Positions 1 to 48,767 of a stretch of DNA of 64,000 nucleotides are shown one piece after another (position 1 is the stretch's first letter; every line of letters starts with the position of its first letter). The stretch is from NCBI GenBank assembly GCA_964409875.1, contig CAYPEN010000002.1, forward strand, positions 1,067-65,066. The letters are read 5' to 3'. The position numbers and the translations under genes are program-made. A model generated the notes under the pieces. The model had not been told where the DNA came from and searched no databases. It saw only the letters and a list, made by a program, of their open reading frames with translations. The stretch comes from an uncultured Gammaproteobacteria bacterium (GTDB taxonomy: Bacteria > Patescibacteriota > Microgenomatia > Levybacterales > GWA1-39-11).

Positions 1-215
1 TTGTGATGCTCCGCATCCTCTACGCGCCGCGCTTCAGCGATGACGCTGTCGCACTGCTCGCAGGGAAGGTGGATCTCGACCGTCGCACGAGCGCGCTCGT
101 TGATGATCCTACCCAAGGCGTAATCCTTGAGCAGAAGGTTGCTGGGGTGACCACTGTCTGGCATTTCTTTACCCCTCCTTGGGGCTTTGCGGATTCCACC
201 GCGGGACTAGTCTTC

Positions 216-590
216 TCAGGCAACAGCCCTTGAAGATGCACGCTTGGTCGGCCTCCTTCGGCGCGATTTCTCACGCCGCAATTGTTCCGACCGCTGCTTG
301 GCCTTGCAAAAGTCATCGAGATACATCCACTCAGTGGCTCGAAGACCTTTGCGACCTTCGGAAACCCGCAAGCGGATCTCCAAGCCTCGGGCCGCATCCC
401 GTTGACTTGCTGAACGGGAGTACGCAACTCCGTTTGGGGTGGGGTACGGCTGAACTCGCTGGTTCTCGTGGAGGAAAATCCGCTCCACGGTTCCGTCGCC
501 TCGGGCGAACCCGAAGACAGAATCGAACCAGACTATCTGACCCACGATGAATGCCATACCATTCTCCTCGAACAGTGTCTCTCCCGGCAT
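216..590 (-). CDS. hypothetical protein (about 124 aa)
   Basis: High-GC ORF. I chose the internal ATG at 588-590 (MPGETLFEENG...), which sits 13 nt after the stop of the upstream gene. The frame choice is uncertain in this high-GC region. Confidence 0.3.
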   Translation of the reverse strand: MPGETLFEENGMAFIVGQIVWFDSVFGFARGDGTVERIFLHENQRVQPYPTPNGVAYSRSASQRDAARGLEIRLRVSEGRKGLRATEWMYLDDFCKAKQRSEQLRREKSRRRRPTKRASSRAVA

Positions 591-603
591 AACCGGGCCG
601 ATG

Positions 604-1101
604 TTATCCCACCGATACACTGGTAGGGGTTTGCGCGAGCTGGACGGAAACCGTCCCAACTCTGCACTCCCCCTCAGGGTATCGAAGCGAGATAGTGTCG
701 TTAAGCACTCCGAGTGCAGCCTGGGCGTAATCCCCAACCGCCTCATTGAGCGCTTGTATGGTCGGAGGGTAATGGTCCGCAAAACGGAGCACTCCCTGCC
801 AGAACGTTGGGGAGACCACGGTGTCATAAAAGGCACCTATCTCCTTTGTGATAATGACTTCAAGCGAGACTTTGTAGAGTTCTCCTCCATGGAGGACATC
901 AACATCTACTTGTTCGCTTCTTGGGGAAGGCGCTAACTCGGCCGCTGATGCTATCGGTCCTACTGTTCTATTGGTAAAGCCTATCAGCAGAATACCGACC
1001 AAAGCGATGAAAGCTAGCACTCCCATGCCTGTATTTAGCTGATGAAGGAAAACAACACCAGCCATACCAAGTACGAAAAGAACGACTTGCCTACTGGGCA
1101 T
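604..1101 (-). CDS. hypothetical membrane protein (165 aa)
   Basis: N-terminal hydrophobic helices. A strong SD (caaaggagggtgcgATG) lies directly upstream, and an AT-rich promoter-like unit lies further upstream at 1130-1420. Confidence 0.5.
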   Translation of the reverse strand: MPSRQVVLFVLGMAGVVFLHQLNTGMGVLAFIALVGILLIGFTNRTVGPIASAAELAPSPRSEQVDVDVLHGGELYKVSLEVIITKEIGAFYDTVVSPTFWQGVLRFADHYPPTIQALNEAVGDYAQAALGVLNDTISLRYPEGECRVGTVSVQLAQTPTSVSVG

Positions 1102-1411
1102 CGCACCCTCCTTTGTTTTTGTTTCCGCAATGACGAAGACAACAGATATATCTTCACCATAGCGGAAACAATACTTAGGCTGCGCTCAGTCTATCAATTT
1201 ACTCACTTGTTCGTAAAATCTCTCACAGATTGTTAAAGTGCAAAGCACTTCAAGCTATGCTTAAAGTGCACTACTTCAAGCTATGCTTAATGTGCAAGAT
1301 AATGTACCGCAAACGTGCTTCAGTTTGCGCGAATTAATGCCAGAGCATTATATCATTTGGATAAATTGGAAACAATTATTATGGGTCTTTATTGCTGGAA
1401 GTGAATTTTTG

Positions 1412-1507
1412 TGGTTAGCCCCACCCCTTCTATTTGAAGAGGTAGGGCCGTTGGTGTCCTTGGTTTGCTTTTATCAAACCTTAGACGCTTGCGAAAGATT
1501 GGTCGCT
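1412..1507. repeat. Repeat A copy 1 (about 90 bp with internal hairpin ccccacccc...ggtagggc); likely terminator
   Basis: About 90% identical to 3075-3166. It sits downstream (3') of the minus-strand gene set 1978->1571. Confidence 0.6.
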
Positions 1508-1570
1508 AATGTTGGTTCATTGCTATCCAGGCAACGGCCACGAGTGTAACAACGGTGACAAACACCCGGC

Positions 1571-1756
1571 TCAAGAATTTGGAGCCTGGGGCTTTTCTTG
1601 TCCGTCATCTTCAACCCACTGGGCCTGGATTCGGGCGACGGCCTCATCCCCCCAGTCGGGGGAACATGACTCGTCGAAATTGTTGTACAGGATGTACTCC
1701 AGCTCGCTGGCTGAAGGTGGTTGAACGCTGGGAGTTGCTCTGGGTGCGCTCGCCAT
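1571..1756 (-). CDS. hypothetical small acidic protein (61 aa)
   Basis: ORF directly downstream of, and translationally coupled to, 1760..1978. Confidence 0.3.
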   Translation of the reverse strand: MASAPRATPSVQPPSASELEYILYNNFDESCSPDWGDEAVARIQAQWVEDDGQEKPQAPNS

Positions 1757-1759
1757 CTT

Positions 1760-1978
1760 CTAGCGGTTATCCCACCAGATCTTGGCAAGCACTGCTGTTG
1801 CAGGCAGATACACCAGTACCGCTGCCAACATGAACCAGACAGACCTCCAGAGCCGTTTTCGCTCGGCCTCCTCTGCTGCTATCATCTTCCTGGAATCTCG
1901 GAAGGCCAGCGCCGTGACGACAATGATCCCAAGACCCAAGAGGAGAATGGACACTCCCCGGTCATCGATATGTACCAT
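1760..1978 (-). CDS. hypothetical small membrane protein (72 aa, 2 predicted TM)
   Basis: Strong SD (aaggagg) 7 nt upstream of the ATG, and two hydrophobic segments. Confidence 0.5.
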   Translation of the reverse strand: MVHIDDRGVSILLLGLGIIVVTALAFRDSRKMIAAEEAERKRLWRSVWFMLAAVLVYLPATAVLAKIWWDNR

Positions 1979-2066
1979 GTGATACGCCCCTCCTTGAGGC
2001 GTTTTCGTATTGTGAGCTCAGTTCGAATTGACGAACCCGATGTTGCCAAAGCAGAGCTGAAAAGCT

Positions 2067-2303
2067 CTACTCGCCCTCTTCTTCTGAACCCTGGTGAGGG
2101 TTCCTTTTCCGCTCGATGAATTCGGTGACACGCTCGAAAGCGCGTAGAACATCCTGTGCGATACGCGCCAGGTCTGTAAGGTCTTTTCCTGCAGTGTGGG
2201 CCGTATCAACGATGATGTGAACACGACCAAAGCGCCGCGGAACGGCACTCTCACCGCGGGAACGGGCAACCTGGTCCCGAATTGAGTTGAGATCCATTTT
2301 CAC
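2067..2303 (-). CDS. hypothetical protein (78 aa)
   Basis: SD (gaggag) upstream. Coding-like composition. Confidence 0.45.
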   Translation of the reverse strand: MKMDLNSIRDQVARSRGESAVPRRFGRVHIIVDTAHTAGKDLTDLARIAQDVLRAFERVTEFIERKRNPHQGSEEEGE

Positions 2304-2307
2304 TCCT

Positions 2308-2709
2308 CTAGACTACAGGTGTGTCGGTAGTTGCCGACCGCGCTTGCCGTTGTTCGAACTTGAGGACGTATTTGTCCCAGAGGGACTTTATGGTCCAAGG
2401 CGAGGCTTTGTACTTGCCGTTTTGTTGAGCATGCAAGTCAAAGTGCAACACCAAATCGCACACGACACGGGGGAACCAAAATGTGGCCTCATCAATCGAG
2501 GCAACGCGATAGCTCACCCTACCTTTGAAGATGCAAACCATCTTAAAGGTGTCAAAGTGGAAAAAGATGTCTTGTCCATGAGTGAGCTCATAGAGCTCGG
2601 TGTTGTTGGGTGGCCGGATAAATCCGAACCTCCCGTAGTAGTGGACGGCTTCTACCGGTGCCTCCGCCCCTCTTAGAATTTTCATCCATACCTCTTGGCT
2701 CATGACCAA
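2308..2709 (-). CDS. cold-shock-domain-like (OB-fold) protein, paralog of 4371..4772
   Basis: The motif YGRFGFIRPP...GQDIFFHFDTF resembles the CSD consensus KGFGFI..G.DVFVHF. It is about 35% identical to the product of 4371..4772. Confidence 0.5.
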   Translation of the reverse strand: MVMSQEVWMKILRGAEAPVEAVHYYGRFGFIRPPNNTELYELTHGQDIFFHFDTFKMVCIFKGRVSYRVASIDEATFWFPRVVCDLVLHFDLHAQQNGKYKASPWTIKSLWDKYVLKFEQRQARSATTDTPVV

Positions 2710-2830
2710 TACTCACCCACAATCGCTTGCAGATGGCAACCAAACTACTAACCAATAACTTATAGCTACTAGCTAATAATGTTGTTGCCACCTGCAAAAC
2801 TTCGAAAAGTTTGAAACAAACTTTTCTCAA
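2708..2830. repeat. Repeat B copy 1 (about 120 bp, low GC) at the 5' end of a promoter-like unit
   Basis: Near-identical to 4801-4922 (aaccaaactactaaccaataacttatagctactagctaataatgttgttgccacctgcaa...). It sits immediately upstream of the CSD-like gene start. Confidence 0.65.
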
Positions 2831-3074
2831 AATGTGTTTTATGGCACTTACTTTAGCAAATGCCAGCGATTTTGCTACGCAAAATCTTTCGCAAGCTGTA
2901 AAAGAGCGTTTGCAGGGATTTGCACGCTAATTCGCAAATCTTTCAAACACAAGGGAAAATTATAACAGAACCGCAAATTCAAAGCAAATACTATAGGGCA
3001 AAAAATATGCAAGGCGAAAATTTTTACAAAAAAAGGATTGTTTGAGTGAAGATAACTGATGTATATGTAGGGAA

Positions 3075-3166
3075 TAGCCCCACCCCTTCTGTTTGAAGAG
3101 GTGGGGCCGTTGGTGTCCTTAGTTTTATTACAAAACCATGGACGCTTGCGAAAGATCTAGTCGTCA
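3075..3166. repeat. Repeat A copy 2 (hairpin-containing, terminator-like)
   Basis: Matches 1412-1507. It is immediately downstream of the minus-strand gene 3157..3447. Confidence 0.6.
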
Positions 3167-3447
3167 GACTGGGGATAGCGAGGCCGTTCTCCGGCGAGAA
3201 ACGCCTCGTAGGAGACAAACTCACCGACTGGCCCGATGTTGCTGAAGATGCGCGACGTTGCGTACACCTTCTCGATCCCAACAGCTGGTTTCCTGCCCGT
3301 AAAAGGCGTGTACTCGATGGTAGTCCTGCCTTCTCCAAGGCAATCGCGGCATACGACGCCGACACCTTTCGGTTCGGCGTAACCGCGATAGACCCCTGTA
3401 CCGCCACAAGGGCGGCACTCGACTTCGAGCTTGACTTTGTCTGTCAT
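3157..3447 (-). CDS. zinc-ribbon protein with two CxxCxGxG motifs (DnaJ-type zinc-finger-like)
   Basis: Contains CRPCGGTG and CRDCLGEG. An SD lies upstream. Confidence 0.5.
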   Translation of the reverse strand: MTDKVKLEVECRPCGGTGVYRGYAEPKGVGVVCRDCLGEGRTTIEYTPFTGRKPAVGIEKVYATSRIFSNIGPVGEFVSYEAFLAGERPRYPQSDD

Positions 3448-3477
3448 GCTTACCTTTCTGCTTTCTCCAGGACTGGA

Positions 3478-4038
3478 CTACGCCTTGGGGCCGATTTTAC
3501 CCGCCGACTGGCGGTACAGCGGAGCGACCTGCAGGATTTGACCTGATTGCGTTCCGTTAATCACAAGTGTCGCACTCGGTGCGGTGTAGCTTCCGAAATA
3601 ACTCTCAAGAAGCGCAATCGCCACCGAATAGAACTCGTCGTCTGTCTTGTAGCCGCTGGGCTTGCTGAACAAGGCGCCGGCAAGCTTCGTCCCCATAGTC
3701 TGTATCTGGTTGCTCGCGCCGGCAGGATCGGTGAAACATCCCATGACGCGGATGCCGATCACCGGATCGGGTGCCCCCTTCTCGTGGTACTCAGTCCCCG
3801 TGGGGAAGAGCGCGTCGAAAAGGACTATGACTGCCCCACCGGTGCAGCGGACACTCCGCTGTCCCGAAGGAACTGTTGAGCGTGGAATAACAGTTGGACT
3901 TTGCACAGGTTGGATAGGACCAACGGGTGCTGAGAGGGTTGGTACCGGCGTTACTGCTGGTGTCGGTTTTTCCGCTCTGTCACCGCATCCTACGGCAACA
4001 ACGGCCACCATCAAGGCGGCCACGATAACGACTTTCAT
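3478..4038 (-). CDS. putative lipoprotein (186 aa)
   Basis: Signal peptide MKVVIVAALMVAVVAVGC with a lipobox Cys. SD ggagagg upstream. Confidence 0.55.
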   Translation of the reverse strand: MKVVIVAALMVAVVAVGCGDRAEKPTPAVTPVPTLSAPVGPIQPVQSPTVIPRSTVPSGQRSVRCTGGAVIVLFDALFPTGTEYHEKGAPDPVIGIRVMGCFTDPAGASNQIQTMGTKLAGALFSKPSGYKTDDEFYSVAIALLESYFGSYTAPSATLVINGTQSGQILQVAPLYRQSAGKIGPKA

Positions 4039-4107
4039 GTGTATCCTCTCCAGTTGGGTTCGTGCCGAAAACCTCGGTCAGGTCCCCCGAGGGGGTCGTA
4101 GCCGAAG

Positions 4108-4375
4108 CTAAGCTGTTGCGAGCTGGCGAGCTGGCTCGCCCAGGAGACGCGCGTAGTAGCGCTCCTCGATCTTTTTGGCCACTGCCTCCATCGCCTTGAT
4201 GAGGTCGTGGCCGGACAGCACCTGCACGATGAGCCTGGTACCTTGCCAGAACTTGTGTTCGATGGAGACTTCTTGGCCCTCCGCCATCCTGGCGGTGTAG
4301 GTGAAGATGTCGTCCCGGATCTGAGCGGCCACCCGCAGTGCGAATGGAAGCTCGTCGTTGGTGTTGATGATCATC
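4108..4375 (-). CDS. hypothetical protein (89 aa)
   Basis: I chose the internal ATG (MIINTNDELPF...) because it has a strong SD (aaaggag) 7 nt upstream. Confidence 0.45.
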
Positions 4376-4772
4376 GTGAAGCTCCTTTGATTTCGGTGTG
4401 GGGTTGAGTTGATGGCTGGCTGTAGAGACGTGTCCATTCGAGGACCGCGTCATCCCAGAAGGGTTTGGGGCACCATTTCTGTGCCCTGAATCCCTTTGTT
4501 GTCCTTTGGAGTTCGAATGCGATTTCCTTCCCCCGCTTGAGGAAGGTTTCCGCCTTTTCGATCTCTTTGGGAGTTGGTGTTTCGGTTCCGAACTCTACTC
4601 CTCCGGCTGTTATAACCGGCAGAAAGAGAGCGTCCAAGTGCAGGAGGATGTCCTGCCCCTGGGTAAGCCTTGCGGCTTGGGAGCCCTTCGGAGGATGGAG
4701 AAATCCATACCTCCTTTCTTCCCGGCGGAAATATGTATCCACCGGAGCGCTTAGCGGAGTCGCTAAACTCAC
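4371..4772 (-). CDS. cold-shock-domain-like protein, paralog of 2308..2709
   Basis: RYGFLHPPKGS...GQDILLHLDALF. Homologous to the 2308..2709 product. Confidence 0.5.
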   Translation of the reverse strand: MSLATPLSAPVDTYFRREERRYGFLHPPKGSQAARLTQGQDILLHLDALFLPVITAGGVEFGTETPTPKEIEKAETFLKRGKEIAFELQRTTKGFRAQKWCPKPFWDDAVLEWTRLYSQPSTQPHTEIKGASR

Positions 4773-4800
4773 CTGCCTACCTACCTGATTGCCTTTCGGC

Positions 4801-4922
4801 GATACTCATCCACAATCACTTGCAGATGGCAACCAAACTACTAACCAATAACTTATAGCTACTAGCTAATAATGTTGTTGCCACCTGCAATACTTCGAAA
4901 AGTTTGAAATAAAATTCTCTCA
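4801..4922. repeat. Repeat B copy 2
   Basis: Near-identical to 2708-2830. It is followed by a promoter-like AT-rich unit homologous to 2830-3075 and 1130-1410. Confidence 0.65.
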
Positions 4923-5560
4923 TAAGGTATCTTGTGGTCTTCGCAATAAATTGTTCAGCCCAAAGATTTTCCTTGCATGCTCGTAAAAAATCTAGCATGC
5001 GACAGTTGTCGTATCGAAGATTTCTCACTTCGTTCAAAATCTTTCGCAAGTTGTTAAAGTGCAAAACAAAGCCAAAAGTATTTTTGTGCTTCAAGCTTTG
5101 TATAATTTTCTTTCTTTGCCCTTTCAAAACATGCAATACGTTTTTTCGAGGCAAAAACAGACAGAAAGTATACCAAAAAACAAGAGGAAATGCAAATACT
5201 ATGGGTTATATTTTATGTGTATTTTTGTGCTACAATCACAACTATGGAAAGAGTTGAATTGCCATCAATTGTCCAGGAGGCAAGCAAACAAATTATATTG
5301 TTTGCTGGTATAGCAGTACGACTTGCGGTATGTCCTGGAGATGATATAGCCCTCGTAAGTGGCACATTTGCAGCCGGTACCGGCCGTGACAATGGGGTCA
5401 TGAGGCAATGATGCCTACTCCACTTGAATTGGACTTAGCGGATAAAAGAAACAGGCGGTTGCCAAAAAGTCTTCGCTAGCCTCAGCCGAGATAGTCAGAC
5501 CTCGCTTAACGTCTCTATATCATAGAATTAATTGCAGCAAAGCTGTGATAACACGATGTA

Positions 5561-6685: not shown

Positions 6686-6800
6686 ATAACTCAAATCTGG
6701 GGTGGCAAGCGGAGGGGGACCCCCGTCGAGCGCCCGCAACCTGAGCTTGCGAATGGTGAGGATGTCGGACGGGGAGGAGCGCAGACAGGACCCCATCGTC
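6686..6800. repeat. GC-rich element copy 1 (about 110 nt), immediately 5' of tRNA-Thr
   Basis: About 70% identical to 10612-10720 and 28697-28822. It shares the blocks ggggtggc..cgactggg/ggaggggg..ccc and gagga..gacaggacc. Confidence 0.6.
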
Positions 6801-7018
6801 AATCTTCCATACCATATTTTATATTTCCATGAGGCTACTTTTCAATCTTAAACGCCTTATTTTTCACGGAATCGCAATTTGTAACACTATTATAAACCAA
6901 AAACAAACACTTTTATGATTTTTAATTGCACAAACAGCGCTAAATACATCAATATATATCATTTGAAGCTGGGCAATATTTTCGTCTTTGATCACAATAA
7001 GTGCCCAAAGCCACAAAA

Positions 7019-7039
7019 AACCACGCATTTTGCGTGGTT
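7019..7039. terminator. Perfect palindrome aaccacgca-ttt-tgcgtggtt
   Basis: 9-bp stem in the AT-rich intergenic region. Confidence 0.4.
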
Positions 7040-7562
7040 AAAGGTGTAGATAAGCCTCGCACAAAATCTTGAGCTAGTTTAGTTTCTGCCGAAACGAAAC
7101 TTCGATGAAGCGAGGCTTTATTTCGAGGCTTAAAGAAACAAGCTCGCTTACGACGTACTGCGTTCACTTGTATAATTTCTGCTCTTAAGCAAAGCTTGAG
7201 AGCTAATAATTCCTGCTCTTAAGAGAATGAAAAATGGCGATTCCCCGAAACATAAGTTGGGAAAAGCTCACCCTCGGACCTAAATCTGAGCGTATCTGCT
7301 TTCTTTGTGCCGGAAAATCCGGTACATACCCTGTTTCGAAAGTTGTAGAGGAAAACACGACCATTTTCCATCTACTCAAGAGCATATCTAGTATATCGCG
7401 CGCCATTAACAAGTCAAGTCTTGACATCACATTTTCTTTGTGGAATTAGCAAGGGGGAGCTATCAAAACAACAAACAATATAATCATCTACTACTATACC
7501 GGTGCTATTCCTAACAATTTTTCCTCTTCTCATTCTGTGCTCCTTTCCTATATACTAATTTT

Positions 7563-8333
7563 ATGGACATTATACATGTAGTAATACTTGGGGTAATTGA
7601 AGGACTTACGGAATTTCTCCCCATCTCCTCTACTGCTCATCAAATTTTAGCCTCCCATGTCCTACAGATCCCTCAATCAGAATTTCTCACTACTTTTGAG
7701 ATTGCAATTCAAGTAGGTGCAATCGCTGCTGTTGTTGTCGTGTACTACAAAAAGATACTTTCAAACAAACCACTTTTCTATAAAGCGTGTGTCGCCTTCT
7801 TGCCGACGGGCGTATTGGGATTTCTTTTTTTCAAACATATCAAAAGCCTTCTTACCAGCTCTTTTGTACCTGTTGTTACACTTCTTGTTGGAGGAATTGT
7901 AATAATTGCTATTGAAATGTTTTTGAAAAATTCAAAACATAAAATGAAAACTACCAAGGATTTGACATACAAAGACGCGTTACTGGTAGGTTTGATACAG
8001 TCAATTTCAATGATTCCAGGGGTATCACGCTCTGCCGCTTCAATTTTTGGGGGCATGGCCATTCGCCTAAACCGGGAATCGGCCGTCGAATTTTCTTTTC
8101 TTTTAGCAATTCCGACAATGGTAGCAGCAACAGGTTTGGACCTCATCAAAGAATCAAAAACTATTACGTCAGGTCAGATATTTGAGCTAATTTTAGGTAC
8201 TCTGATAGCTTTTGTAGTAGCACTTCTTGTCATAAAGTGGCTACTTAAGTATGTTCAGAAGAATAATTTTGTGGGATTTGGTATATACCGAATTGCACTT
8301 GCTATCCTCTACTACTTAATATTTCTTAGATAG
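7563..8333 (+). CDS. uppP: undecaprenyl-diphosphate phosphatase
   Basis: Signature EGLTEFLPISSTAH and a polytopic membrane profile. Confidence 0.9.
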   Translation: MDIIHVVILGVIEGLTEFLPISSTAHQILASHVLQIPQSEFLTTFEIAIQVGAIAAVVVVYYKKILSNKPLFYKACVAFLPTGVLGFLFFKHIKSLLTSSFVPVVTLLVGGIVIIAIEMFLKNSKHKMKTTKDLTYKDALLVGLIQSISMIPGVSRSAASIFGGMAIRLNRESAVEFSFLLAIPTMVAATGLDLIKESKTITSGQIFELILGTLIAFVVALLVIKWLLKYVQKNNFVGFGIYRIALAILYYLIFLR

Positions 8334-8340
8334 GAACTGA

Positions 8341-8360
8341 GCCCGCCATGAAGGCGGGCC
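8341..8360. terminator. GC hairpin gcccgcc-atgaa-ggcgggc
   Basis: 7-bp GC stem directly after the uppP stop. It is also the left boundary of a high-GC island. Confidence 0.6.
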
Positions 8361-8377
8361 CGTAGTGTCGAACGTGC

Positions 8378-8905
8378 TCAGAATGTCCAGTTGAGCCGAC
8401 CGCCATGCTCCTGCAGGAGCTTGACGATGTTAGCCCGATTGGGGTTGGCTCGAGCTTGGACCTTGTTCACGACCCGGATAAGGAACTCCCGAACGACTTC
8501 TTCGTCCGAGGCCTCAGAAAGACCGGAGCCGCCAAGCGATATCCCGGCCATGAACACTCCGCCGAACCAGCCGACCGCACCGATGGGAAGTACGGCTGGA
8601 CGACGAGCCCAAACCTGCGAAAGGGTTTGCTGGAAACGGTGTGTCAGCTCCGCCTTCGCCCGGGCGTTGTTCCGGAATCGCGAAGCGAGGTCGCTGTTAC
8701 CGACCTGCTTCTCCCAGAGAAATGCGCTCTCCCATGCTTCCTGCATGAGCAAGGACGTTAAACGCTCGTATGTGAGCGTCGGATTGACGAGGGAGAGGTG
8801 GAAGCCGTCCCGCTCCTGCGCTTTCATCAGATCGCGCAGCATCGGTTCAACCTCCACGAAAGCTGCTTCGCAGTCCTCGGGTGTCAGGAAAAACGGTTTG
8901 TCCAA
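8378..8905 (-). CDS. hypothetical protein (175 aa) in a high-GC island
   Basis: TTG start with SD agaaaggata upstream. The overlapping plus-strand ORF is Arg/Ser-rich and looks like an off-frame artefact. Confidence 0.4.
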   Translation of the reverse strand: MDKPFFLTPEDCEAAFVEVEPMLRDLMKAQERDGFHLSLVNPTLTYERLTSLLMQEAWESAFLWEKQVGNSDLASRFRNNARAKAELTHRFQQTLSQVWARRPAVLPIGAVGWFGGVFMAGISLGGSGLSEASDEEVVREFLIRVVNKVQARANPNRANIVKLLQEHGGRLNWTF

Positions 8906-9016
8906 GATTTATCCTTTCTGTTAGTTGGGCTTGTCCGAAGGCTTCGGACACGAGCACGGCTTCCGCCGCCGGACAATTTGCCGTTGTTATCCCTCGCTAT
9001 CGCGAGGCTGGTCGAG

Positions 9017-9466
9017 TCACGCTCGTCGGCGAGCGTGGGTAGGAAGCGCGATTCTGGGATGGCGAATGTAGCATTCGCAACCCGTGTGCATATCGCGCAG
9101 CGCAAAAGCGACGTGGGCCGTATAGACGGGCCCGTCCGCCTCGGGAAGGATGATGACCGGCTCGACACTTCCGGTCTTTTCAACCTCACCGTCTCGCGGG
9201 TCGCTTTTGGCTGTCCAGGAGAGACTTACGACGAGCTCACGCCCATTAAAGCCTATCTCCCGGATTTCTCCCCACAGGTCACCGATGCGCTTTGGGCGCC
9301 GAACCTGCAGGAGCATGCCGGAAAGTTCCCGGCACGCAACGAAGTCTGCCCAGGGTATCGCAGTGAACACATGTCCTCCTGTTATACCCCGCCTCACAAT
9401 TTCCGTATAAGAAACTCTGAGGCAAGGTAAACAGAAAGTGTTTTTGCACGTTCTGTTAAAGAGCAA
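9017..9466 (-). CDS. hypothetical protein (high-GC island)
   Basis: The most protein-like frame in this stretch. The start is uncertain. Confidence 0.25.
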   Translation of the reverse strand: MLFNRTCKNTFCLPCLRVSYTEIVRRGITGGHVFTAIPWADFVACRELSGMLLQVRRPKRIGDLWGEIREIGFNGRELVVSLSWTAKSDPRDGEVEKTGSVEPVIILPEADGPVYTAHVAFALRDMHTGCECYIRHPRIALPTHARRRA

Positions 9467-9790
9467 ATCGTGAGTCCGGCATGCTGTTGCCAGACAACAA
9501 CTTACTCAGCAATTATATCAAGTGTGAAGCTAATTTCAATACTATAAGTTAAAAACCGTGAAGTTAATTGCCACGCTTCAGCCTGTGTATAATTTATTAC
9601 ATAATTTTCATTGCGTTTACATAGCAGTTTGGTAATTCTGTTACATGTCTAGTCTTGATGGAGTTTATTTAGCTGAAGAACACCCCGTAGATGAGGCGTT
9701 GGGATGCATGGTTCCGATTGCTCTGGCGATAGCCGGGCTTTTATTTTTTTTAACGAAACTCATTGCTTTTTAAGTATATTTGCCTCCTAT

Positions 9791-9827
9791 TTTCAGAAAG
9801 TTTTAAATTAAAACTTTCGCATACAAT
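9791..9827. repeat. Hairpin-GCATACAAT element copy 1
   Basis: Palindrome gaaagtttt-aaattaaaactttc followed by gcatacaat. Related to 9888-9920 and 11568-11610. Confidence 0.55.
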
Positions 9828-9842
9828 AAGTTAAGAAGATTA

Positions 9843-9950
9843 GTGAAGCGACTGAATAGGAGCGGAACAAAAACTCTTTACCATTTTTCAGGAACTTTTT
9901 AAAAAAGTTCCGCATACAATTTTGAAAAGAGGTTTACATCCCTTTTTGTT
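9843..9950. repeat. Hairpin-GCATACAAT element copy 2 (longer unit gtgaagcgactgaataggagcgg...ggaactttttaaaaaagttccgcatacaat)
   Basis: About 80% identical to 11526-11640. Contains a perfect palindrome. Confidence 0.6.
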
Positions 9951-10215
9951 GAATGCCTAAAAGATAAAGAACTGCTTCTTTCTTATATCTTCTATCCCCT
10001 CGGGAGTTTATGCGGATAGCGGGTAACTTACCTCTTTTCCCCCATCTTTTAATGGTTAAGGGACTGACCCGCAATAATTCGGCAACTTCACGGACTGTTA
10101 GAAGGTCTGGGAGAGATTCGATTGATATATTTTGATTAGCCATTTTCTGCCTTAAATTAACACTATCACTATCAAATGTATATTCAGAGTAGCAAAGAAT
10201 ATCATACCTTGTCAA
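9934..10215 (-). CDS. excisionase-family helix-turn-helix DNA-binding protein
   Basis: LLTVREVAELLRVSPLTIKRWGKRGKLPAIRI matches the Xis/MerR-type HTH pattern. Confidence 0.65.
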   Translation of the reverse strand: MTRYDILCYSEYTFDSDSVNLRQKMANQNISIESLPDLLTVREVAELLRVSPLTIKRWGKRGKLPAIRINSRGDRRYKKEAVLYLLGIQQKGM

Positions 10216-10343
10216 TACCCTAAATTGACTAATTTAGTTTTGTCAAAGACTCTCTACGATATTCATGCCCTACACTATGACACAACCTGTGACAAAAATA
10301 AGAAACGCAGGAAATTTTTGAAAGATTTGAAAATTCCGAAAGT

Positions 10344-11228
10344 CTAAGAAAAACGCTCTCTTAGAACTGCATATGCAAATCTTGGCAACGCAAGTTGTCT
10401 TTTAATTCTCCACGGCTGCATTGCAAGTCGGAATGCCCACTCCATCCCCATATCTCTCATAAACTTTGGTGCTCGTCTCACTTTCCCCGATACATAATCA
10501 AAAGCACCCCCTACTCCCATAGCAACTGTTACATCGATACTATCAAGATTTTTTGCAATCCACTCCTCCTGCTTTGGCGCACCGAAGGCAACAAAAAGGA
10601 TATCTATATGGGGTCTGGTAAGGGGTGGCTCGACTGGGGGACCCCCATTGTCCACCCGCAACCCAAACGAAGCGCGTGGTGAGGATGACGAATGGGGGTG
10701 AGGAGAGACAGGACCCCAAACTTCATTCTTCCACTTTTCACCTACAAAAACTACTCTAAGCCCCGGGTACTTTTCACGCAAGCACTCCGAAGCCTTCTCT
10801 GCTACACCCCTACTACCCCCTAAAAAGCCTATGTTAATAGGACGATTTGATGCTACAGCACATATTTTTTCCATTAGATCGGTACCAGTTATTCGTCCTA
10901 TAATTTTCTTTTTGAGTATCCTACCGGCTATGAGTACACCTATCCCATCGGGAAGGCTGAGGGTAGCACCATTTAGAACGTCTTGGAACCTCTTTGAGCG
11001 TGTGCCTAACATCAAAATTTCGGGATTTGGTGTTACTATATAGAATTTTTTTGAAGGGTTTTCCAGTCTTTTGAAGATATACTCTAAGACTTCACTTTCG
11101 GAAGCTGTCGTTATATCGGTTCCTAATATTTTTACGGAAGGTAAATTTTTTCCCATACTATACACTTTTTCGATTCTTTTCGTATGATTTTTCAAAGCTC
11201 TCTGTTGTTCATTTTTTTTACCCCTCAA
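10344..11228 (-). CDS. WecB/TagA/CpsF-family glycosyltransferase carrying an in-frame GC-rich insertion
   Basis: Contains ILGTDI...IVTPNPE...DGIGV...ILFVAFGAPKQEEWI. The true start may be the internal MGKNLPSVKILG. The insertion lies at 10612-10720. Confidence 0.75.
   Translation of the reverse strand: MRGKKNEQQRALKNHTKRIEKVYSMGKNLPSVKILGTDITTASESEVLEYIFKRLENPSKKFYIVTPNPEILMLGTRSKRFQDVLNGATLSLPDGIGVLIAGRILKKKIIGRITGTDLMEKICAVASNRPINIGFLGGSRGVAEKASECLREKYPGLRVVFVGEKWKNEVWGPVSPHPHSSSSPRASFGLRVDNGGPPVEPPLTRPHIDILFVAFGAPKQEEWIAKNLDSIDVTVAMGVGGAFDYVSGKVRRAPKFMRDMGMEWAFRLAMQPWRIKRQLALPRFAYAVLRERFS
10612..10720. repeat. GC-rich element copy 2, in frame inside the glycosyltransferase CDS
   Basis: Encodes VWGPVSPHPHSSSSPRASFGLRVDNGGPPVEPPLTRPH, placed where TagA homologs have a short acidic helix. 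Confidence 0.6.
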
Positions 11229-11525
11229 TTTAGCCTATGAATTCAGTCTAAGTTGCTTTTTGCACTCTCCGGTAAAGTAAAGAGCAGAACAACTCTATAA
11301 TTTATAATATATGATATATCAAAATAGTGTTTTTATCAAAAATCGTGAAAATATTTGACATATTGATAATTTTTCACATTCCTACAAGATAAAACTCACA
11401 GATTTTGAATGTCTAATATTTATTTATTAAAGGTCGCTTGCTTTCCTACTAATTTCTTACGTTTCACTCTCCTTTCTCTTATGCTTCGATTTATTTTTTT
11501 GCCATTCAACTAATACTCATTTTTA

Positions 11526-11640
11526 GTGAAACGACTGCATAGGAGCGGAGCCAAGACTCTTTTCCTATTCTCTGGAAGTTTTTGAAATAAAACTTCCGCA
11601 TACAATCAAAAAAAGAGGCTTATTTATATACTCCTCTTTA
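11526..11640. repeat. Hairpin-GCATACAAT element copy 3
   Basis: Homologous to 9843-9950. With copy 2 it brackets the excisionase-family gene and the glycosyltransferase. Confidence 0.6.
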
Positions 11641-11751
11641 ATTTCCTATTGATAGATTTCTTAGCGCAGCCCAGAAATCTTCCCCTGACCTAGTATTCAT
11701 TCCTATTGATAGATTTCTTAGCGCAGCCAAGAAAAGCATATCTTAATATTC
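11639..11751. repeat. Two degenerate tandem duplications (about 60-bp period) of the mreB 3' end
   Basis: attcctattgatagatttcttagcgcagcc occurs twice and matches the mreB terminal codons attcctgttgatgcttttcttatac. Confidence 0.6.
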
Positions 11752-12762
11752 ATTCCTGTTGATGCTTTTCTTATACAGTTCCAAATTTTCCAATGCTACT
11801 CCCGTTCCCCGTGCAACACAGTAGAGAGGGTCTTCTGCAATATAAGCGGGCACACCGGTTTCTCGCGTTATGTATTTATCCATATTTCGAAGAAGCGTTG
11901 TTCCTCCGGAAAGAACGATACCTTTATCTATAATGTCTGAAGCCAACTCAGGCGGTGTCATTTCGAAGGTTTCACGGATTGCACCAATCATTGCCTTCAA
12001 AACAGGCTGTATTGCTTCATTTATCTCAAATTCGTTGACCTCAACAGAACGTGGAAGACCTGACACACTATCCCTTCCCTTAACTTCCATCTTTTTTGTC
12101 GAAGTTGAAGCTGGGATAGCGTTTGCCATACTGACCTTTATTTCCTCTGCCGTCTGCTCCCCCACCATAAGATTGAACTTTTTCTTAATGTACGTGCCTA
12201 TCGACTCTTCCAATTTATCCCCTGCCACCCGGATAGACTTGTGGACCACAACTCCACCTAAGGAAATGACGGCAACATCGCTCGTCCCACCCCCCGAGTC
12301 CAAAATCATATGCCCGTTAGGTTGAGCGATTGGGATTTTTGCCCCGATTGCTGCAGCCAATGGCTCTTCAATGAGGTACACGGAACGCGCACCAGCAGCC
12401 ATCGTTGCGTCTAAAACCGCTCTTTTTTCTACTTGAGTAATACCAGACGGAATGCATACCATAACCTCCGGCTTCAAAAATCGGCTCTTTCCGGATACTT
12501 TTTCGATGAAATATGAAAGCATCGCCTCCGTTATGACATAATCGGCAATAACTCCGTCTTTTAAGGGCCGTGTTGCTACAATATTGCCGGGTGTGCGACC
12601 CAACATCTCTTTTGCTTCACTTCCAACTGCTACCACCTTGTTGTCATCTGCCCTTACGGCAACAACCGTTGGCTCATTGAGAACCACACCTTTCCCCCCT
12701 AAATATACCAGTGTATTTGCTGTTCCCAAATCGATACCGATGCGTTTGTTAAATATGCTCAT
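11743..12762 (-). CDS. mreB: rod-shape-determining protein MreB
   Basis: MSIFNKRIGIDLGTANTLVY... is actin-like ATPase sequence along its full length. Confidence 0.95.
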   Translation of the reverse strand: MSIFNKRIGIDLGTANTLVYLGGKGVVLNEPTVVAVRADDNKVVAVGSEAKEMLGRTPGNIVATRPLKDGVIADYVITEAMLSYFIEKVSGKSRFLKPEVMVCIPSGITQVEKRAVLDATMAAGARSVYLIEEPLAAAIGAKIPIAQPNGHMILDSGGGTSDVAVISLGGVVVHKSIRVAGDKLEESIGTYIKKKFNLMVGEQTAEEIKVSMANAIPASTSTKKMEVKGRDSVSGLPRSVEVNEFEINEAIQPVLKAMIGAIRETFEMTPPELASDIIDKGIVLSGGTTLLRNMDKYITRETGVPAYIAEDPLYCVARGTGVALENLELYKKSINRNEY

Positions 12763-12913
12763 TTTTTATATATCACACTATACAATTTCTGCATCATTTG
12801 CAGCTGCTATATCCAATATACCTTATTTCTCTTGAAATTAACAGTCATGCGTCACGCTTCTTCTTGCACTTGACCCAAAAAGTGTATAATGAGTAAGAAC
12901 GAAAGGAATTTCT

Positions 12914-14113
12914 ATGCCCAAAAAGACACTTTTTACTACAGTTATTGTACTTCTTCTCGTAAGTCTTGTTGCCTATGCTTTTATTCTATATGGCAAAGGC
13001 TATCGCCTCAATTTATCCGGTAAAGGAAGCAAGATACTTGCAGGTACCGGGCTTCTCGTTCTGACAAGTACGCCAAATGGGGCTCGCGTGTATCTTAATG
13101 ACAATTTCACAACCGCAACGGACGACACGATAAATTTACCGCCCGGTGACTATGACGTTCGAATAGAAAAAGACGGATATTATCCTTGGAAAAAGCATGT
13201 CGTACTCAAAAATGAGGCTGTTACAAAAACGGATGCGGTTCTTTTCCCCGTTGTTCCTAAGCTTGAAGGCGTTACTCTTCTTGGGGCAGAACAACCATTG
13301 GTAGATAAAACCGGAAGTTTTGTGGCCTATAAAGTAAGCTCTTCTTCTGCTGAGAACAACGGCATTTATATTCTTAACATCAATAGGCCTATCATTTCGT
13401 TTGGAAGCTCTTCAAAGCAGATTGCAAGTGATAAGGTTGATAATTTCTCAAAAGCAACAATGGAATTTTCCCCCGATGGACTTGCGCTTCTTGCAACAAT
13501 TCCTGCCCCTGCAGGAGACAGGATTTATCTCTTAAAAACAGATATGCTCAATACGGAACCTCAAAATGTAACATTTACTATCGAACAGGTTAAAAAACAA
13601 TGGGAACTTATGCAACAGCAGTTGGACAAGAAATTCATAACAAGCCTCCCGCAGGCAACACGTACATTCGTACAGGAAAACTTTTCAGAACCACAACTCT
13701 CTCCTGAGGGCGACAAAATTCTTTATATTGCTTCACAAAGCGCTACAATGCCCCACTTCATAAATCCTCCTCTTCCCTCAACAAACTCAACAGTTGAAAC
13801 AAGAAATCTAGTAAAAGGATATGCATACGTCTATCAAATAAAAGAAGACAAAAACTACCTTCTGTATGCTTTAAGTGATGGCGGACAATTACCTCATTTC
13901 ATATGGCACCCCTCTTCTGCGCACTTAGTGTTCATTGAGAACAAAAGGATAGTTTCGATGGAATATGACGGTGGTAATAAAACTACGCTGTATGCAGGTC
14001 CATTTGACCCCTCTTTTCTCTATACATGGCCTGATGGCTCAGGACTTATTATACTTACCAACTTTAACGATGAAACAGTACCTCCCAATTTGTACCGCGT
14101 AGGCCTCAGATAA
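12914..14113 (+). CDS. N-anchored PEGA-domain protein with beta-propeller-like C-terminal region
   Basis: N-terminal TM segment. PEGA-like NGARVYLNDNFTTATDDTINLPPGDYDVRIEKDGY. SD gaaagga upstream. Confidence 0.65.
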   Translation: MPKKTLFTTVIVLLLVSLVAYAFILYGKGYRLNLSGKGSKILAGTGLLVLTSTPNGARVYLNDNFTTATDDTINLPPGDYDVRIEKDGYYPWKKHVVLKNEAVTKTDAVLFPVVPKLEGVTLLGAEQPLVDKTGSFVAYKVSSSSAENNGIYILNINRPIISFGSSSKQIASDKVDNFSKATMEFSPDGLALLATIPAPAGDRIYLLKTDMLNTEPQNVTFTIEQVKKQWELMQQQLDKKFITSLPQATRTFVQENFSEPQLSPEGDKILYIASQSATMPHFINPPLPSTNSTVETRNLVKGYAYVYQIKEDKNYLLYALSDGGQLPHFIWHPSSAHLVFIENKRIVSMEYDGGNKTTLYAGPFDPSFLYTWPDGSGLIILTNFNDETVPPNLYRVGLR

Positions 14114-14234
14114 ATTATTGCTAATAGTCAATAGTCGATAGCTAATAGTCAAAACTATTATTTCAAATTATTCATTTAACTTAATGCTTCCCACTACTAG
14201 CTTTTTGCTCTTAACTATTAGTTTTTAAGTTAAT

Positions 14235-14266
14235 CCGGGGCGCTGAGTTGTGCTCAAACGCCCCGG
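14235..14266. terminator. GC hairpin ccggggcg...cgccccgg
   Basis: 8-bp GC stem downstream of the minus-strand operon. It is the left boundary of a high-GC island. Confidence 0.5.
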
Positions 14267-14282
14267 AAGGAACAGGTCAGTG

Positions 14283-14699
14283 CTAGCCGTGGCCCTGAAG
14301 GAGGACCTCGTTTTGCATAGCTGCGGCAAAGGCCGGAGTCAGCTGGTCAGGACGGATGTCCACGGGTTCACCCGGATGGTGAACCTCTCCATGCAGCTGA
14401 AGATCCGAACGAAGCCTTGCAAGATCAGCCACAGGCAAACCGAGTGCCGTGGCCGTTTTGGCGTCTTGCCTCTCTCGCGCCCTGCGCTCTCGGCCGTTCA
14501 CCCAGCGGTGAAGCTGGAAGAGCAAAACCTCCGCCTCCCTGAGCTTTTCAGGCTCAAATTGGAGAAGGATTTCGCCTTCCCCGCCGGCCTGCTTGAGCTC
14601 ATCGTTCTCGACTCGGGTCCGAAAACCCTCGTCGCTGTAGATGCGAGCCAGCTGTAGGGCCAGCTCAAGGACGTCTTTGTCAGGAATAATATCAGTCAC
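14283..14699 (-). CDS. hypothetical protein (138 aa, GTG start), high-GC island
   Basis: SD aaggaagagg upstream of the GTG. Confidence 0.45.
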   Translation of the reverse strand: MTDIIPDKDVLELALQLARIYSDEGFRTRVENDELKQAGGEGEILLQFEPEKLREAEVLLFQLHRWVNGRERRARERQDAKTATALGLPVADLARLRSDLQLHGEVHHPGEPVDIRPDQLTPAFAAAMQNEVLLQGHG

Positions 14700-14744
14700 T
14701 CTGCCTCTTCCTTACTGGTGGAAGAACCGGAAGCCGTAGTCGGC

Positions 14745-15065
14745 TTAGTGTTCTTCCATGAGCTGCCGGTCGAGCCGGATTTGCTGCGCCACCCTTCTCT
14801 CGTGCCGTCCTTTTTCAAGAGCACAAACAGCTCCCTCAATGAAGCTCACCACGAAATAAAGGAGAAGTGCCCAAAGGGCTCCTGCCGTAACCCAGAGGAT
14901 TGCGGACGGAAACACAGCCCCACCACTGATAAAAACGCCCGATGTGGCGAGTTGTGGCAGGGTCATCCACCTGATGGTTTTCTGGCCAAGCTTGTAAGCC
15001 TGCCATACTCCCACGAGTGGCAAGGAGAGCACGAAGAGCATCTCCCAGAACGCAAGTTCGCTCAT
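14745..15065 (-). CDS. hypothetical membrane protein (106 aa)
   Basis: Three hydrophobic helices. SD aaaaggaaac upstream. Confidence 0.45.
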   Translation of the reverse strand: MSELAFWEMLFVLSLPLVGVWQAYKLGQKTIRWMTLPQLATSGVFISGGAVFPSAILWVTAGALWALLLYFVVSFIEGAVCALEKGRHERRVAQQIRLDRQLMEEH

Positions 15066-15547
15066 CTTGTTGTTTCCTTTTCGAAGCTGAGGCGCTCAGC
15101 CGTTTCGGGCTGGGTGCCAACGTAGATGGTCATCTTTCCTTGGTAGGAAGGATATGTCTTGACGATGTCCTGAGCGATGGTTGCCGCTTCGGTTTTTACT
15201 TCGAGGGCGCTTTTGAAAGGCGTCACCTCATTGTGTTGATACAGAACTTCCTTGACTTGTTCATAGAACATGTCGAGGGTTTGTGGGGCCACGAACAAAG
15301 CGGGGTCTACACACGCGGTGAAAACCAACCCGGTAACGGTGACATTCTTCCCGTTCCCGCCTGTAACGGTAAAATGAGCATGTTGCAGCTCTTTTTTTAC
15401 CGGTGACAGTTTCTTGCACGACGTAAGTGGCGTGCCGACGGCGATGTACGAGGCCTTTGGAGAACTCGTACTGTGGTCTACGGAGTAGGCCAGGACGACG
15501 GCGCATAACGCCAAAATAATGATGCTGATTGAGATGCGGGGTCCCAT
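15062..15547 (-). CDS. hypothetical secreted protein (161 aa)
   Basis: Start at MGPRISISIIILALCAVVLAYS (signal peptide) with SD gggagaggaaga upstream. Confidence 0.45.
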   Translation of the reverse strand: MGPRISISIIILALCAVVLAYSVDHSTSSPKASYIAVGTPLTSCKKLSPVKKELQHAHFTVTGGNGKNVTVTGLVFTACVDPALFVAPQTLDMFYEQVKEVLYQHNEVTPFKSALEVKTEAATIAQDIVKTYPSYQGKMTIYVGTQPETAERLSFEKETTR

Positions 15548-15816
15548 GTCTTCCTCTCCCTGGAAGTGTCTGGTGCAGGGCATTTCTGTCCTGCGGGTTC
15601 GGATACTGACCTGTTGTTAATGTGCGTGAGCGCAAAACGCGCGCCCAGCATGCAAAAAAACACCAGGCGGCGCAATGCGCCAAACATCAAATTATATCAA
15701 AAAACACAATCCATTTCAAATACTACGGGATAGTATTTGAGGCTGACATATGCACTTGTAAGTTGAATAAAAATACTAAATACTAAAGGTACAACCGTTT
15801 TTAACGGCTTTATTCT

Positions 15817-16695: not shown

Positions 16696-16784
16696 TATCC
16701 GTGAAAAATCGTGAAAAATGTGATGTAGGCTCTTGACATATACATACCTTTCTGTTTCTAATAGTAATAGCATTTAGATAAAAT

Positions 16785-18248: not shown

Positions 18249-18347
18249 TAGCTAATAGTCGATAGACAATAGGTAATAGAAAGAGCTAGTTTGAGTTATT
18301 GAACCAATTTAGCTATTAGCTATAAACTATTAACTATAAATTAAATT

Positions 18348-28696: not shown

Positions 28697-28822
28697 AGAT
28701 GTGGGGTGGCGCGACTGGGCCCAGTTGAGAACCTAACGCAAGCGAACCCATAATCTTCTCATAAGTAGAGCGGGCGGCAAGGCTTGCAAACTGGGTGCAG
28801 GAGCGACAGGACCTCACCGATT
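28697..28822. repeat. GC-rich element copy 3, between comEA and comEC
   Basis: Homologous to 6686-6800 and 10612-10720. Confidence 0.55.
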
Positions 28823-32538: not shown

Positions 32539-32725
32539 ATAGTAAAAGAATTGTACCAAACTTTTGCCTCAAATTATAGCCCATATGTACTTATGGTAAA
32601 ATGGCGCTGTCACTCATGCGGCCAATTCGCAAAAAGCTTGCGTTTTCGGGCTCTTGAGCAGACCGCCTAGGCTCGCCTCGGCGAGACTGGCACATTGAAA
32701 ACGCAGGAAAAGAAAGGATTAACCA

Positions 32726-33677: not shown

Positions 33678-33689
33678 TGCCACCTGCGT

Positions 33690-33740
33690 TCTCCCGAATT
33701 CTCGGGAGAAAAACTTGGCGGCCCGGTTCTCCGGGCCGTC
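33690..33740. terminator. Two GC hairpins (ctcccgaattctcgggag; ggcccggttctccgggcc) after ndk
   Basis: Perfect inverted repeats immediately 3' of the ndk stop. Confidence 0.55.
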
Positions 33741-48760: not shown

Positions 48761-48767
48761 TTCCAAA

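Follow-up and report, generated by a model that had tools for sequence, protein, structure and literature searches.

Six GC-rich units with the layout of expression cassettes in a Candidatus Levybacteria chromosome

A 64,000-nt stretch of contig CAYPEN010000002.1 (hereafter the window, always at its full length) was found to carry six short segments much richer in guanine and cytosine (GC) than the chromosome around them. The best explanation of these islands, which we hold with moderate confidence, is that they are old, clade-specific accessory cassettes of foreign composition whose GC richness is actively maintained and not residual. The six patches would be self-contained accessory expression cassettes in a Levybacteria chromosome; GC-rich non-host DNA may have entered the ancestor of the clade, or may have been built there under a different regime, and homologous recombination would have reshuffled the cassettes during their inheritance since then. 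The cargo consists of assorted small proteins, mostly clade-restricted orphans, plus nucleoside diphosphate kinase (Ndk). No prior description of such cassettes was found in the searchable literature. A preliminary description of the window, made from the sequence alone, had pointed to GC-rich patches; that observation was confirmed with corrections, and its interpretation was partly supported.

Composition, translation signals and common layout

Comparison of MreB placed the window in Candidatus Levybacteria (Microgenomates, candidate phyla radiation (CPR)), not in a Saccharibacteria-like episymbiont, which had been raised as a possibility. MreB identities to other sequences fell into tiers, with close relatives at 90–98%, a further group at ~78% and other Microgenomates at ~60–69%. 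The window has 42.9% GC, and 500-nt intervals outside the islands have a GC fraction of 0.413 ± 0.045 (maximum 0.51). The six GC-rich segments have 54–58% GC (z = 2.8–3.7 vs the background of ~41%), an excess of about +13 to +17 points, which is less than the jump of ~20 points first described. GC-rich DNA was found at each of the four patches originally listed, but the patch at 1–5000 is made up of three units (a, b and c, together the array), so that with the solitary units p2, p3 and p4 there are six.

GC at the first, second and third codon positions is.62/.44/.63 in island genes vs.48/.45/.355 in host genes, and the islands encode more arginine (7.4 vs 2.9%) and less asparagine (2.3 vs 6.8%). 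Both C-ending and G-ending codons are more frequent in the islands, whose non-coding parts lie at.45–.68 GC; because the enrichment extends to G-ending codons and non-coding DNA, translational selection was rejected as the sole cause of the GC shift. Strand-specific mutation linked to transcription was also dropped, since GC and AT skews did not follow gene orientation consistently. In the composition-normalised dinucleotide signature, δ* between islands and host is 115, whereas the null is 36 ± 14 and reaches 81 at most. Splitting the island set in half gives a distance of 59 between the halves, equal to that of host vs host, and the six units therefore share one coherent non-host signature. 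A search for uptake signals found no over-represented k-mers common to the islands.

The translation-initiation signals differ in the same way. A Shine–Dalgarno (SD) motif precedes 13 of the 19 island genes, vs a background expectation of 18% (p = 1.6e-6), with the full AAGGAGG in three, and GTG or TTG accounts for 8 of the 19 island starts; the textbook SD sites and unusual start codons noticed at the outset are thus real. Among host genes, whose starts were taken from the longest open reading frames (ORFs), the motif occurs in 3 of 24, not significantly different from chance, and the contrast between islands and host is significant (Fisher p = 3e-4). With the same approximation of starts, host genes at 7563–64000 are mostly without an SD motif and have AT-rich upstream regions. 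The anti-SD sequence is reported to have been lost only in some Parcubacteria (PMC9297842).

All six units share a layout consisting of a predicted, AT-rich and near-consensus sigma-70-type promoter with an extended −10 element, a leader, two to four short ORFs and a GC hairpin. This order of promoter, GC body and hairpin recurs in most of the 20 islands inspected in relatives. Within the first 16.5 kb, the two strongest promoter matches, at 11 of 12 positions plus TG, immediately precede p2 and p3, and of the six exact TGNTATAAT sites in the 64 kb, four are upstream of units; the −10 of p4 was not called by the promoter scan and was read from the sequence. Leaders measure ~120–140 nt in the solitary units and 250–330 nt in the array units, and the island ORFs are tightly packed, often overlapping by 4 nt. 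The 3′ hairpins fold with z = −4 to −6.7, and the DNA past the hairpin is back at 25–44% GC within a few bases. Three bounding hairpins named in the preliminary description (8341–8360, 14235–14266 and 33690–33740) held up, with z = −4.1, −5.6 and −5.4, respectively. By prediction, the GC hairpins are most likely transcription terminators. Neither gathering-threshold nor permissive Rfam scans of the units and leaders returned an RNA family, including the cspA leader.

The array at 1–5000 consists of three tandem units divided by spacers of ~40% GC that bear repeat modules, and the units of the array, p2 and p3 are all on the minus strand. Its inter-cassette regions are ~450 nt long and AT-rich. 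The scaffold comprises a 136-nt leader module, 92% identical between b and c, that forms a long hairpin, together with a 3′ module of 82 nt that has two hairpins (94% identical). A motif of 12 nt, CTTGCGAAAGAT, occurs as inverted pairs around b (1489–1499 on the plus and 2884–2894 on the minus strand) and around c (3146–3156 and 5039–5049, likewise), and such a pair also brackets a unit in a relative (L008/L102; loci of relatives are designated by L numbers). The solitary units are without scaffold modules. An exact scan of metagenome DNA for the scaffold motif gave 0 matches, the pattern being too specific, and the UppP protein was used in its place as the anchor for finding the loci of relatives. 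The array is neighboured by a polysaccharide deacetylase gene, beyond which, 1.5 kb away, lies tRNA-Thr; host genes are present at the other end of the array in L105 and L102. Two minor observations concern the array: a stop-codon-rich, low-complexity motif (CTAATAGTCAATAGTCGATAGCTAATAG and variants) is found both in its leader module (2745–2772 and 4838–4865) and in intergenic DNA at 14121–14148 and 18245–18272, and in L009 a two-gene module at 16802–18179 is tandemly duplicated (16802/17507 and 17178/17889) inside one array island.

Conservation, age and exchange of the islands

The preliminary description had left room for a chimeric assembly, and an assembly or binning chimera joining high-GC with low-GC organisms would account for the compositional contrast itself, and for nothing further. 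Per-run Logan contigs are 100% identical to the window over 9372–17018, 10106–17018 and 1–2755, spanning the junctions between island and host, and the last of them runs on 2.4 kb past the window edge into ordinary host genes. L001 and L002 are 100% identical over both junctions of p3, and at least 12 contigs, produced in different studies with different assemblers (GenBank metagenome-assembled genomes (MAGs) and JGI contigs), show the same architecture. Because independent assemblies reproduce the junctions at 100% identity, misassembly was excluded and the chimera refuted; we assign it a practically negligible probability. The Logan contigs break at the repeated leader module, and the linkage of b to c therefore rests on the window and a collinear JGI contig.

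GC islands make up as much as ~25% of locus length in the close clade, and are essentially absent from the relatives in the ~78% MreB tier (MreB ≤79%), from other Microgenomates and from all loci with UppP ≤50% identity. The slot of p3, between CpD and PEGA, is filled in L007, L008, L009, L010, L012 and L044; that of p2, between MerR and UppP, in L008, L009, L087, L091, L092 and L102; and that of p4, next to the leucyl-tRNA synthetase (LeuRS) gene, in L003, L004, L005 and L006, where ndk lies in the same GC island. A few are vacant (that of p3 in L013 and that of p2 in L014), and the intergenic DNA there is too diverged from the window to be aligned for insertion scars. The cargo of a given slot can be unrelated from one species to another. 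Separately, in L014 (8192–10001 and 6559–6981) a GC island lies between PEGA and MreB rather than between CpD and PEGA, and two adjacent intergenic slots carry a ~45-nt repeat (CGGGCGTTCATTCACTCATTT...).

Synonymous divergence (dS) between the window and its relatives ranges from 1.1 to infinity in islands and flanks alike, i.e., it is saturated. In every lineage, third-position GC (GC3) is 0.47–0.75 in island orthologues (most ≥0.55) vs 0.27–0.46 in flanks, and a rough two-state estimate indicated that neutral decay would give a GC3 of ~0.5 or lower even from 0.95. Since composition, codon and amino-acid usage, SD dependence and dinucleotide signature persist after synonymous saturation, some force seems to hold the GC richness. 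As far as the compared sequences tell, the pattern is not that of a recent transfer awaiting amelioration. Ndk is 64–82% identical among relatives, similar to the adjacent LeuRS (69–72%); other island proteins are 30–64% identical, with flanks at 70–98%. The ratio of nonsynonymous (dN) to synonymous divergence is 0.10–0.35 in island genes, and their ORFs are conserved at full length; they are therefore real genes under purifying selection, with a dN two to five times that of the flanks.

The search for a donor led back to the clade. The island proteins find their best matches among orthologues of related Levybacteria that lie at corresponding loci and are equally GC-rich; the preliminary description had itself named such an outcome as refuting, and a recent import from an actinobacterial or other high-GC host is not supported. 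Neither a set of 5.8 billion proteins nor one of 1.84 billion yielded close donor homologues. Outside the clade, matches to Ndk have 50–56% identity and come from an archaeon, Micrococcales and a Firmicute; the archaeal one, the nearest (55%), sits in an L7Ae–S28e–L24e–Ndk–aIF5B operon, and the named non-clade matches are mostly from Micrococcales (52–54%). Comparison of Ndk and TIM with PDB entries revealed no special affinity. A search of 1.84 billion cluster representatives gave 14 relatives of the 175-aa protein of p2; those with readable context occupy the same slot or similar arrays, and one distant relative lies on a uniformly 58% GC contig. The family of array first genes has six members. 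These two families thus have only a handful of metagenomic relatives and no actinobacterial members, and viral contigs contained no relatives of either family or of the third gene of unit c, nor a copy of the scaffold. No integrase or transposase Pfam match was found in or beside the units, and no flanking direct repeats or insertion into a tRNA gene. A foreign ultimate origin of the units is still suggested, because neither the ~78% MreB relatives nor, with few exceptions, the other Microgenomates loci examined have them, and because they share one coherent non-host signature.

Comparison with one relative (L008/L102/L003), which is ~79% identical to the window overall, revealed tracts of 100% DNA identity at window positions 1–1486, 6950–8100 and 8420–10750. 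The first takes in unit a and scaffold and ends at the CTTGCGAAAGAT motif; the third takes in p2 and neighbouring genes, and independent contigs run across the breakpoint near 10750. Units b, c, p3 and p4, by comparison with the same relative, are far more diverged than their flanks. Cassettes thus account for the extremes of both conservation and divergence in the region, a pattern expected of accessory loci passing between lineages through homologous recombination. Related lineages exchange pieces the size of a cassette, and the breakpoints lie in conserved flanks or in scaffold modules.

Competing explanations for the GC richness

If the islands were a recent, unameliorated acquisition from a donor of high GC, for instance an actinobacterial host, as originally proposed, their composition, amino-acid usage, use of SD motifs and GTG/TTG starts, all typical of high-GC bacteria, would follow directly, and the Micrococcales among the Ndk matches would fit. 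However, orthologous islands occupy the same slots across lineages with saturated synonymous sites, the nearest non-clade Ndk is archaeal, the orphan families lack actinobacterial members and the organism is not Saccharibacteria-like, which makes this origin very improbable. Continuing import is a different matter: the cassettes might be repeatedly refreshed from an unsampled reservoir of ~57% GC (a plasmid-like or viral element or an episymbiont partner) and then spread by recombination, so that they would always look young. The coherent signature across the six units, the cellular, housekeeping-type cargo (Ndk, TIM and ACP), the 58% GC contig with the distant relative of the p2 protein and the recent tracts of transfer between lineages are all compatible with it, as is the finding that 33 of the 71 island ORFs catalogued at 13 loci are singletons among sampled relatives and that unrelated cargo fills the same slot between species. 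On the other hand, the orthologues of Ndk, p2 and p3 keep their slots, Ndk has diverged about as much as LeuRS, as in vertical descent, and the protein searches gave no close donor homologues, the viral searches no contig relatives and no PHROG signal, and no unit adjoins an integrase or transposase. We consider continuing import possible, if on the unlikely side.

Under GC-biased gene conversion, the cassettes, as diversifying accessory loci set between conserved genes or repeat scaffolds, would be recombination hot spots in which repeated biased conversion leads to a higher GC equilibrium. This would explain why coding and non-coding DNA are both GC-rich and C- and G-ending codons both elevated; the 100%-identity tracts take in islands a and p2, the competence genes ComEA and ComEC are present, and by our own estimate a modest scaled force (B ~1.4) would suffice. 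Yet the identical tracts also cover the flanking MerR, part of WecG and UppP, which are still AT-rich, and the island edges are sharp, at promoter and hairpin, rather than fading as the variable ends of conversion tracts would. The GC3 shift of about +28 points is also, to our knowledge, far above any reported for bacteria, and gene conversion as the main cause is distinctly unlikely. A site-specific platform, integron-like or an invertible phase-variation switch, would have the scaffold, including the inverted CTTGCGAAAGAT pair and hairpin modules, serve as recombination sites. Its attraction lies in the array: scaffold modules 92–94% identical carry cargo that is unrelated or only 28% identical, the inverted pair flanks b, c and a unit in L008/L102, one recombination breakpoint falls at the scaffold motif and the cassettes all have one orientation. 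But no integrase or invertase was found near the array in the window, neither strand of the inter-cassette or 3′ regions contains RYYYAAC/GTTRRRY attC cores, each unit has its own promoter-like site and two to four ORFs, neither the window nor L008/L102 or L009 showed an inverted orientation, and p2–p4 lack the scaffold modules; such a platform is quite improbable.

For the cassettes as old and actively maintained, we favour, as the maintaining force, weak selection acting through the way they are expressed, which would combine a strong promoter, a structured, GC-rich and UA-poor mRNA and SD-dependent, coupled translation; we hold this part with low confidence. Several points weigh against the explanation as a whole or against this force. 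The long leaders of the array are AT-rich although presumably transcribed, which argues against a simple rule of whole-transcript selection for GC, and the promoters, transcription starts and terminators were predicted from consensus and folding. The scarcity of SD motifs in the host may be somewhat overstated because its starts were taken from the longest ORFs. Island GC3 is lower in two lineages, L004 (0.47–0.63) and L087 (0.53–0.58). At saturation dS is unreliable, and parallel decay from a much more GC-rich ancestor may have occurred; a three-taxon polarisation of third positions was powerless here, its result being the saturation artefact g/(1−g) in islands and flanks. With so many singletons, continuing import fits as well as rapid divergence. 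The main rivals of weak selection as the maintaining force are GC-biased gene conversion and re-import.

Known systems resemble the cassettes in part. Genomic islands share the sharp contrast, the atypical codons and dinucleotides, the accessory and mostly hypothetical cargo, the patchiness beyond one clade and the intergenic insertion; unlike them, the units here have no integrase, transposase, flanking direct repeats or tRNA-gene insertion, are tiny (1.1–1.6 kb), each form one complete promoter-to-terminator operon, and keep their position across species with saturated dS without amelioration or a recognisable donor. Integron arrays and clusters of attC sites lacking integron-integrases (CALINs) likewise have tandem, co-oriented, small and variable cargo, mostly small proteins of unknown function, with conserved hairpin-forming modules between. 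Here, by contrast, there is no IntI and there are no attC cores, each unit has its own promoter and leader with two to four ORFs, the inter-cassette DNA is ~450 nt and AT-rich, and solitary units occur without scaffold; the window has one integrase-related match only, two SAM-like domains of a 3725-aa protein encoded 33 kb from the array. The O-antigen and capsule loci of enterobacteria are large, functionally coherent polysaccharide-synthesis loci with GC below that of the genome, and have fixed slots and long-term atypical GC. They share with the cassettes the fixed slot, divergent or non-homologous alleles, exchange through conserved flanks and a lasting atypical composition, whereas the units here are tiny, functionally miscellaneous and above the genome in GC, with translation-initiation signals unlike those of the host. 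Finally, cspA-type cold-shock genes have long structured 5′ leaders, and the array units similarly combine a protein resembling a cold-shock domain (CSD)/OB fold, with RNP1- and RNP2-like motifs, and a strongly structured leader of 250–330 nt; the proteins here, however, contain inserted helices and are twice as large as Csp, stay below the Pfam CSD threshold, belong to polycistronic GC-rich operons and have leaders without a match to the Rfam cspA leader.

Atypical GC is usually read as a time stamp of recent transfer or, in MAGs, as a warning of chimerism, and here it is neither. If maintenance were confirmed, the islands would offer a clear natural setting in which to tell apart the effects of selection, biased gene conversion and re-import on local composition, in a tiny genome with few repair genes. 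The coexistence of SD-led cassettes with an SD-poor core in one genome bears on gene calling and on expression in CPR, and a pool of fast-evolving, exchangeable small proteins, many of them secreted or membrane-bound, may matter for an episymbiotic lifestyle. A broader proposition, unlikely enough to be called a conjecture, is that a CPR genome of ~1 Mb houses two regimes, an AT-rich and SD-poor core and exchangeable, strongly promoted, SD-dependent GC-rich cassettes whose composition is held by selection or biased conversion, with the array scaffold acting as a recombination platform distinct from integrons. Under this conjecture, GC boundaries shaped like transcripts (from about +1 to the terminator hairpin) might even permit the capture of foreign transcripts.

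Cargo, coordinates and other features of the window

The ndk gene is genuine (Pfam NDK, E 1.4e-42, 131 of 135 profile positions) and lies in the fourth patch, not at 1–5000 where the preliminary description had placed it; its GTG start overlaps the stop of the preceding gene. The C-terminal region of Ndk reads N-A-V-H-A-S-D-S, which matches the catalytic histidine motif NxxH(G)SD with Ala in place of Gly. The NCBIfam equivalog score of 141 bits is below the cut-off of 155, and the protein is therefore a divergent member of the family. For the 175-aa protein of p2, which had no Pfam match and, with the family profile, no PDB sequence match, the AlphaFold2 (AF2) model (pLDDT 92) shows a predicted GlcG/HbpS/DUF336 fold: the top 20 PDB structure matches are all of the DUF336 type (probability ~1, TM 0.5–0.65).

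A family of CSD-like proteins is encoded by the first gene of units b and c and the second of unit a. They carry RNP1-like (Y/F)GF(I/L) and RNP2-like I(F/L)(F/L)H(F/L)D motifs, and Foldseek assigned a probability of ~1.0 to the CSDs of CspA, CspB, YB-1 and Lin28, with TM 0.3–0.4 on the query and one of five AF2 models confident (pLDDT 78). None reached the Pfam CSD gathering threshold (best E 0.011, 16 bits vs a cut-off of 27, and only for 216–557), and the models support a resemblance to a cold-shock/OB domain at a moderate level. Further island products are lipoproteins or signal-peptide proteins, small membrane proteins and a CxxCxGxG zinc ribbon, and the islands of relatives additionally encode TIM, ACP and a second Ndk. 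Searches of the island proteins against Pfam, NCBIfam, PHROGs and PADLOC returned only Ndk, a generic zinc ribbon and the weak CSD match, and no defence, phage or mobility families. The features of the units are listed in the table.

Table. Features of the six GC-rich units in the window
Feature	Position	Strand	Description
Unit a, GC-rich segment	1–1101	−	GC 55.6%; three genes; ends ~50 nt past the window edge, per the 100%-identical L105
Unit a, gene	604–1101	−	165 aa, membrane N-terminus
Unit a, gene	216–557	−	113 aa, CSD-like; weak Pfam CSD match
Unit a, gene	1–164	−	start of a 68-aa gene running off the window
Unit a, promoter and leader	1102–1415	−	AT-rich; extended −10 TGATATAAT at 1347–1355; repeat D12/D18 at 1214–1247
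Unit b, 3′ scaffold module	1416–1499	−	two hairpins, one with a 14-bp GC stem; repeats D11, D20; TTGCGAAAGAT at 1489–1499; 94% identical to 3075–3156; fold z = −6.1; 100%-identity tract with L102 stops here
Unit b, GC-rich segment	1500–2709	−	GC 53.6%; four genes; orthologues in L102 at 52–75% identity
Unit b, gene	2308–2703	−	131 aa, CSD-like
Unit b, gene	2067–2303	−	78 aa
Unit b, gene	1760–1978	−	72 aa, membrane
Unit b, gene	1571–1756	−	61 aa
Unit b, promoter and structured leader	2704–3074	−	AT-rich; extended −10 TGTTATAAT at 2959–2967; TTGCGAAAGAT at 2884–2894; conserved 136-nt hairpin module D4 at 2709–2844; whole leader fold z = −8.1
Unit c, 3′ scaffold module	3075–3156	−	two hairpins; TTGCGAAAGAT at 3146–3156; fold z = −6.7
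Unit c, GC-rich segment	3157–4800	−	GC 57.5%; four genes
Unit c, gene	4371–4772	−	133 aa, CSD-like
Unit c, gene	4108–4377	−	89 aa
Unit c, gene	3478–4038	−	186 aa, lipoprotein-type signal
Unit c, gene	3157–3447	−	96 aa, CxxCxGxG zinc ribbon
Unit c, leader	4773–5100	−	AT-rich; D4 copy at 4802–4937, 92% identical to 2709–2844; TTGCGAAAGAT at 5039–5049
Unit p2	8338–9539	−	GC 58%; GC-rich segment 8338–9505; predicted promoter TTGAAA-16-TATAAT with TG at 9512–9539; leader ~140 nt; hairpin 8341–8360
Unit p2, gene	9017–9373	−	118 aa
Unit p2, gene	8378–8905	−	175 aa, GlcG/HbpS-like fold (predicted)
Unit p3	14230–15719	−	GC 55%; GC-rich segment 14230–15690; predicted promoter TTGAAA-17-TATAAT with TG at 15691–15719; GC-rich leader 137 nt; hairpin 14235–14266
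Unit p3, gene	15062–15547	−	161 aa, signal peptide
Unit p3, gene	14745–15065	−	106 aa, membrane
Unit p3, gene	14283–14699	−	138 aa
Unit p4	32594–33745	+	GC 55.6%; GC-rich segment 32604–33745; extended −10-like TGGTAAAAT at 32594–32602, then leader; two GC hairpins between 33689 and 33745
Unit p4, gene	32726–32995	+	89 aa
Unit p4, gene	33100–33267	+	55 aa
Unit p4, gene	33264–33677	+	Ndk, 137 aa

Several features outside the units were also recorded. LeuRS (29530–32559, minus strand, 1009 aa) contains a Ser_hydrolase/alpha-beta-hydrolase domain (PF06821, E 9e-8) inserted at residues 253–416, directly preceding the editing domain, and the same insert is present in L003, L004 and L006. A giant ORF of 3725 aa (37583–48760, plus strand) has two N-terminal phage-integrase SAM-like (core-binding) domains, with no catalytic domain detected, and internal repeats of 120–244 nt at 40–45 kb; its homologue in L003 has 4445 aa and matches to Kelch/beta-propeller. 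A 47-nt GC-rich repeat (62–79% identity) occurs at 6749–6795, 10672–10718 and 28770–28816; one copy is beside tRNA-Thr and the other two fall within the WecG and ComEC frames. AT-rich intergenic DNA at 48766–49043, upstream of 49065–49985, contains a tandem duplication of ~190 nt (84–91% identity), and the heptamer TCTTCTG forms short runs at 30857–30905 and 61955–62010.

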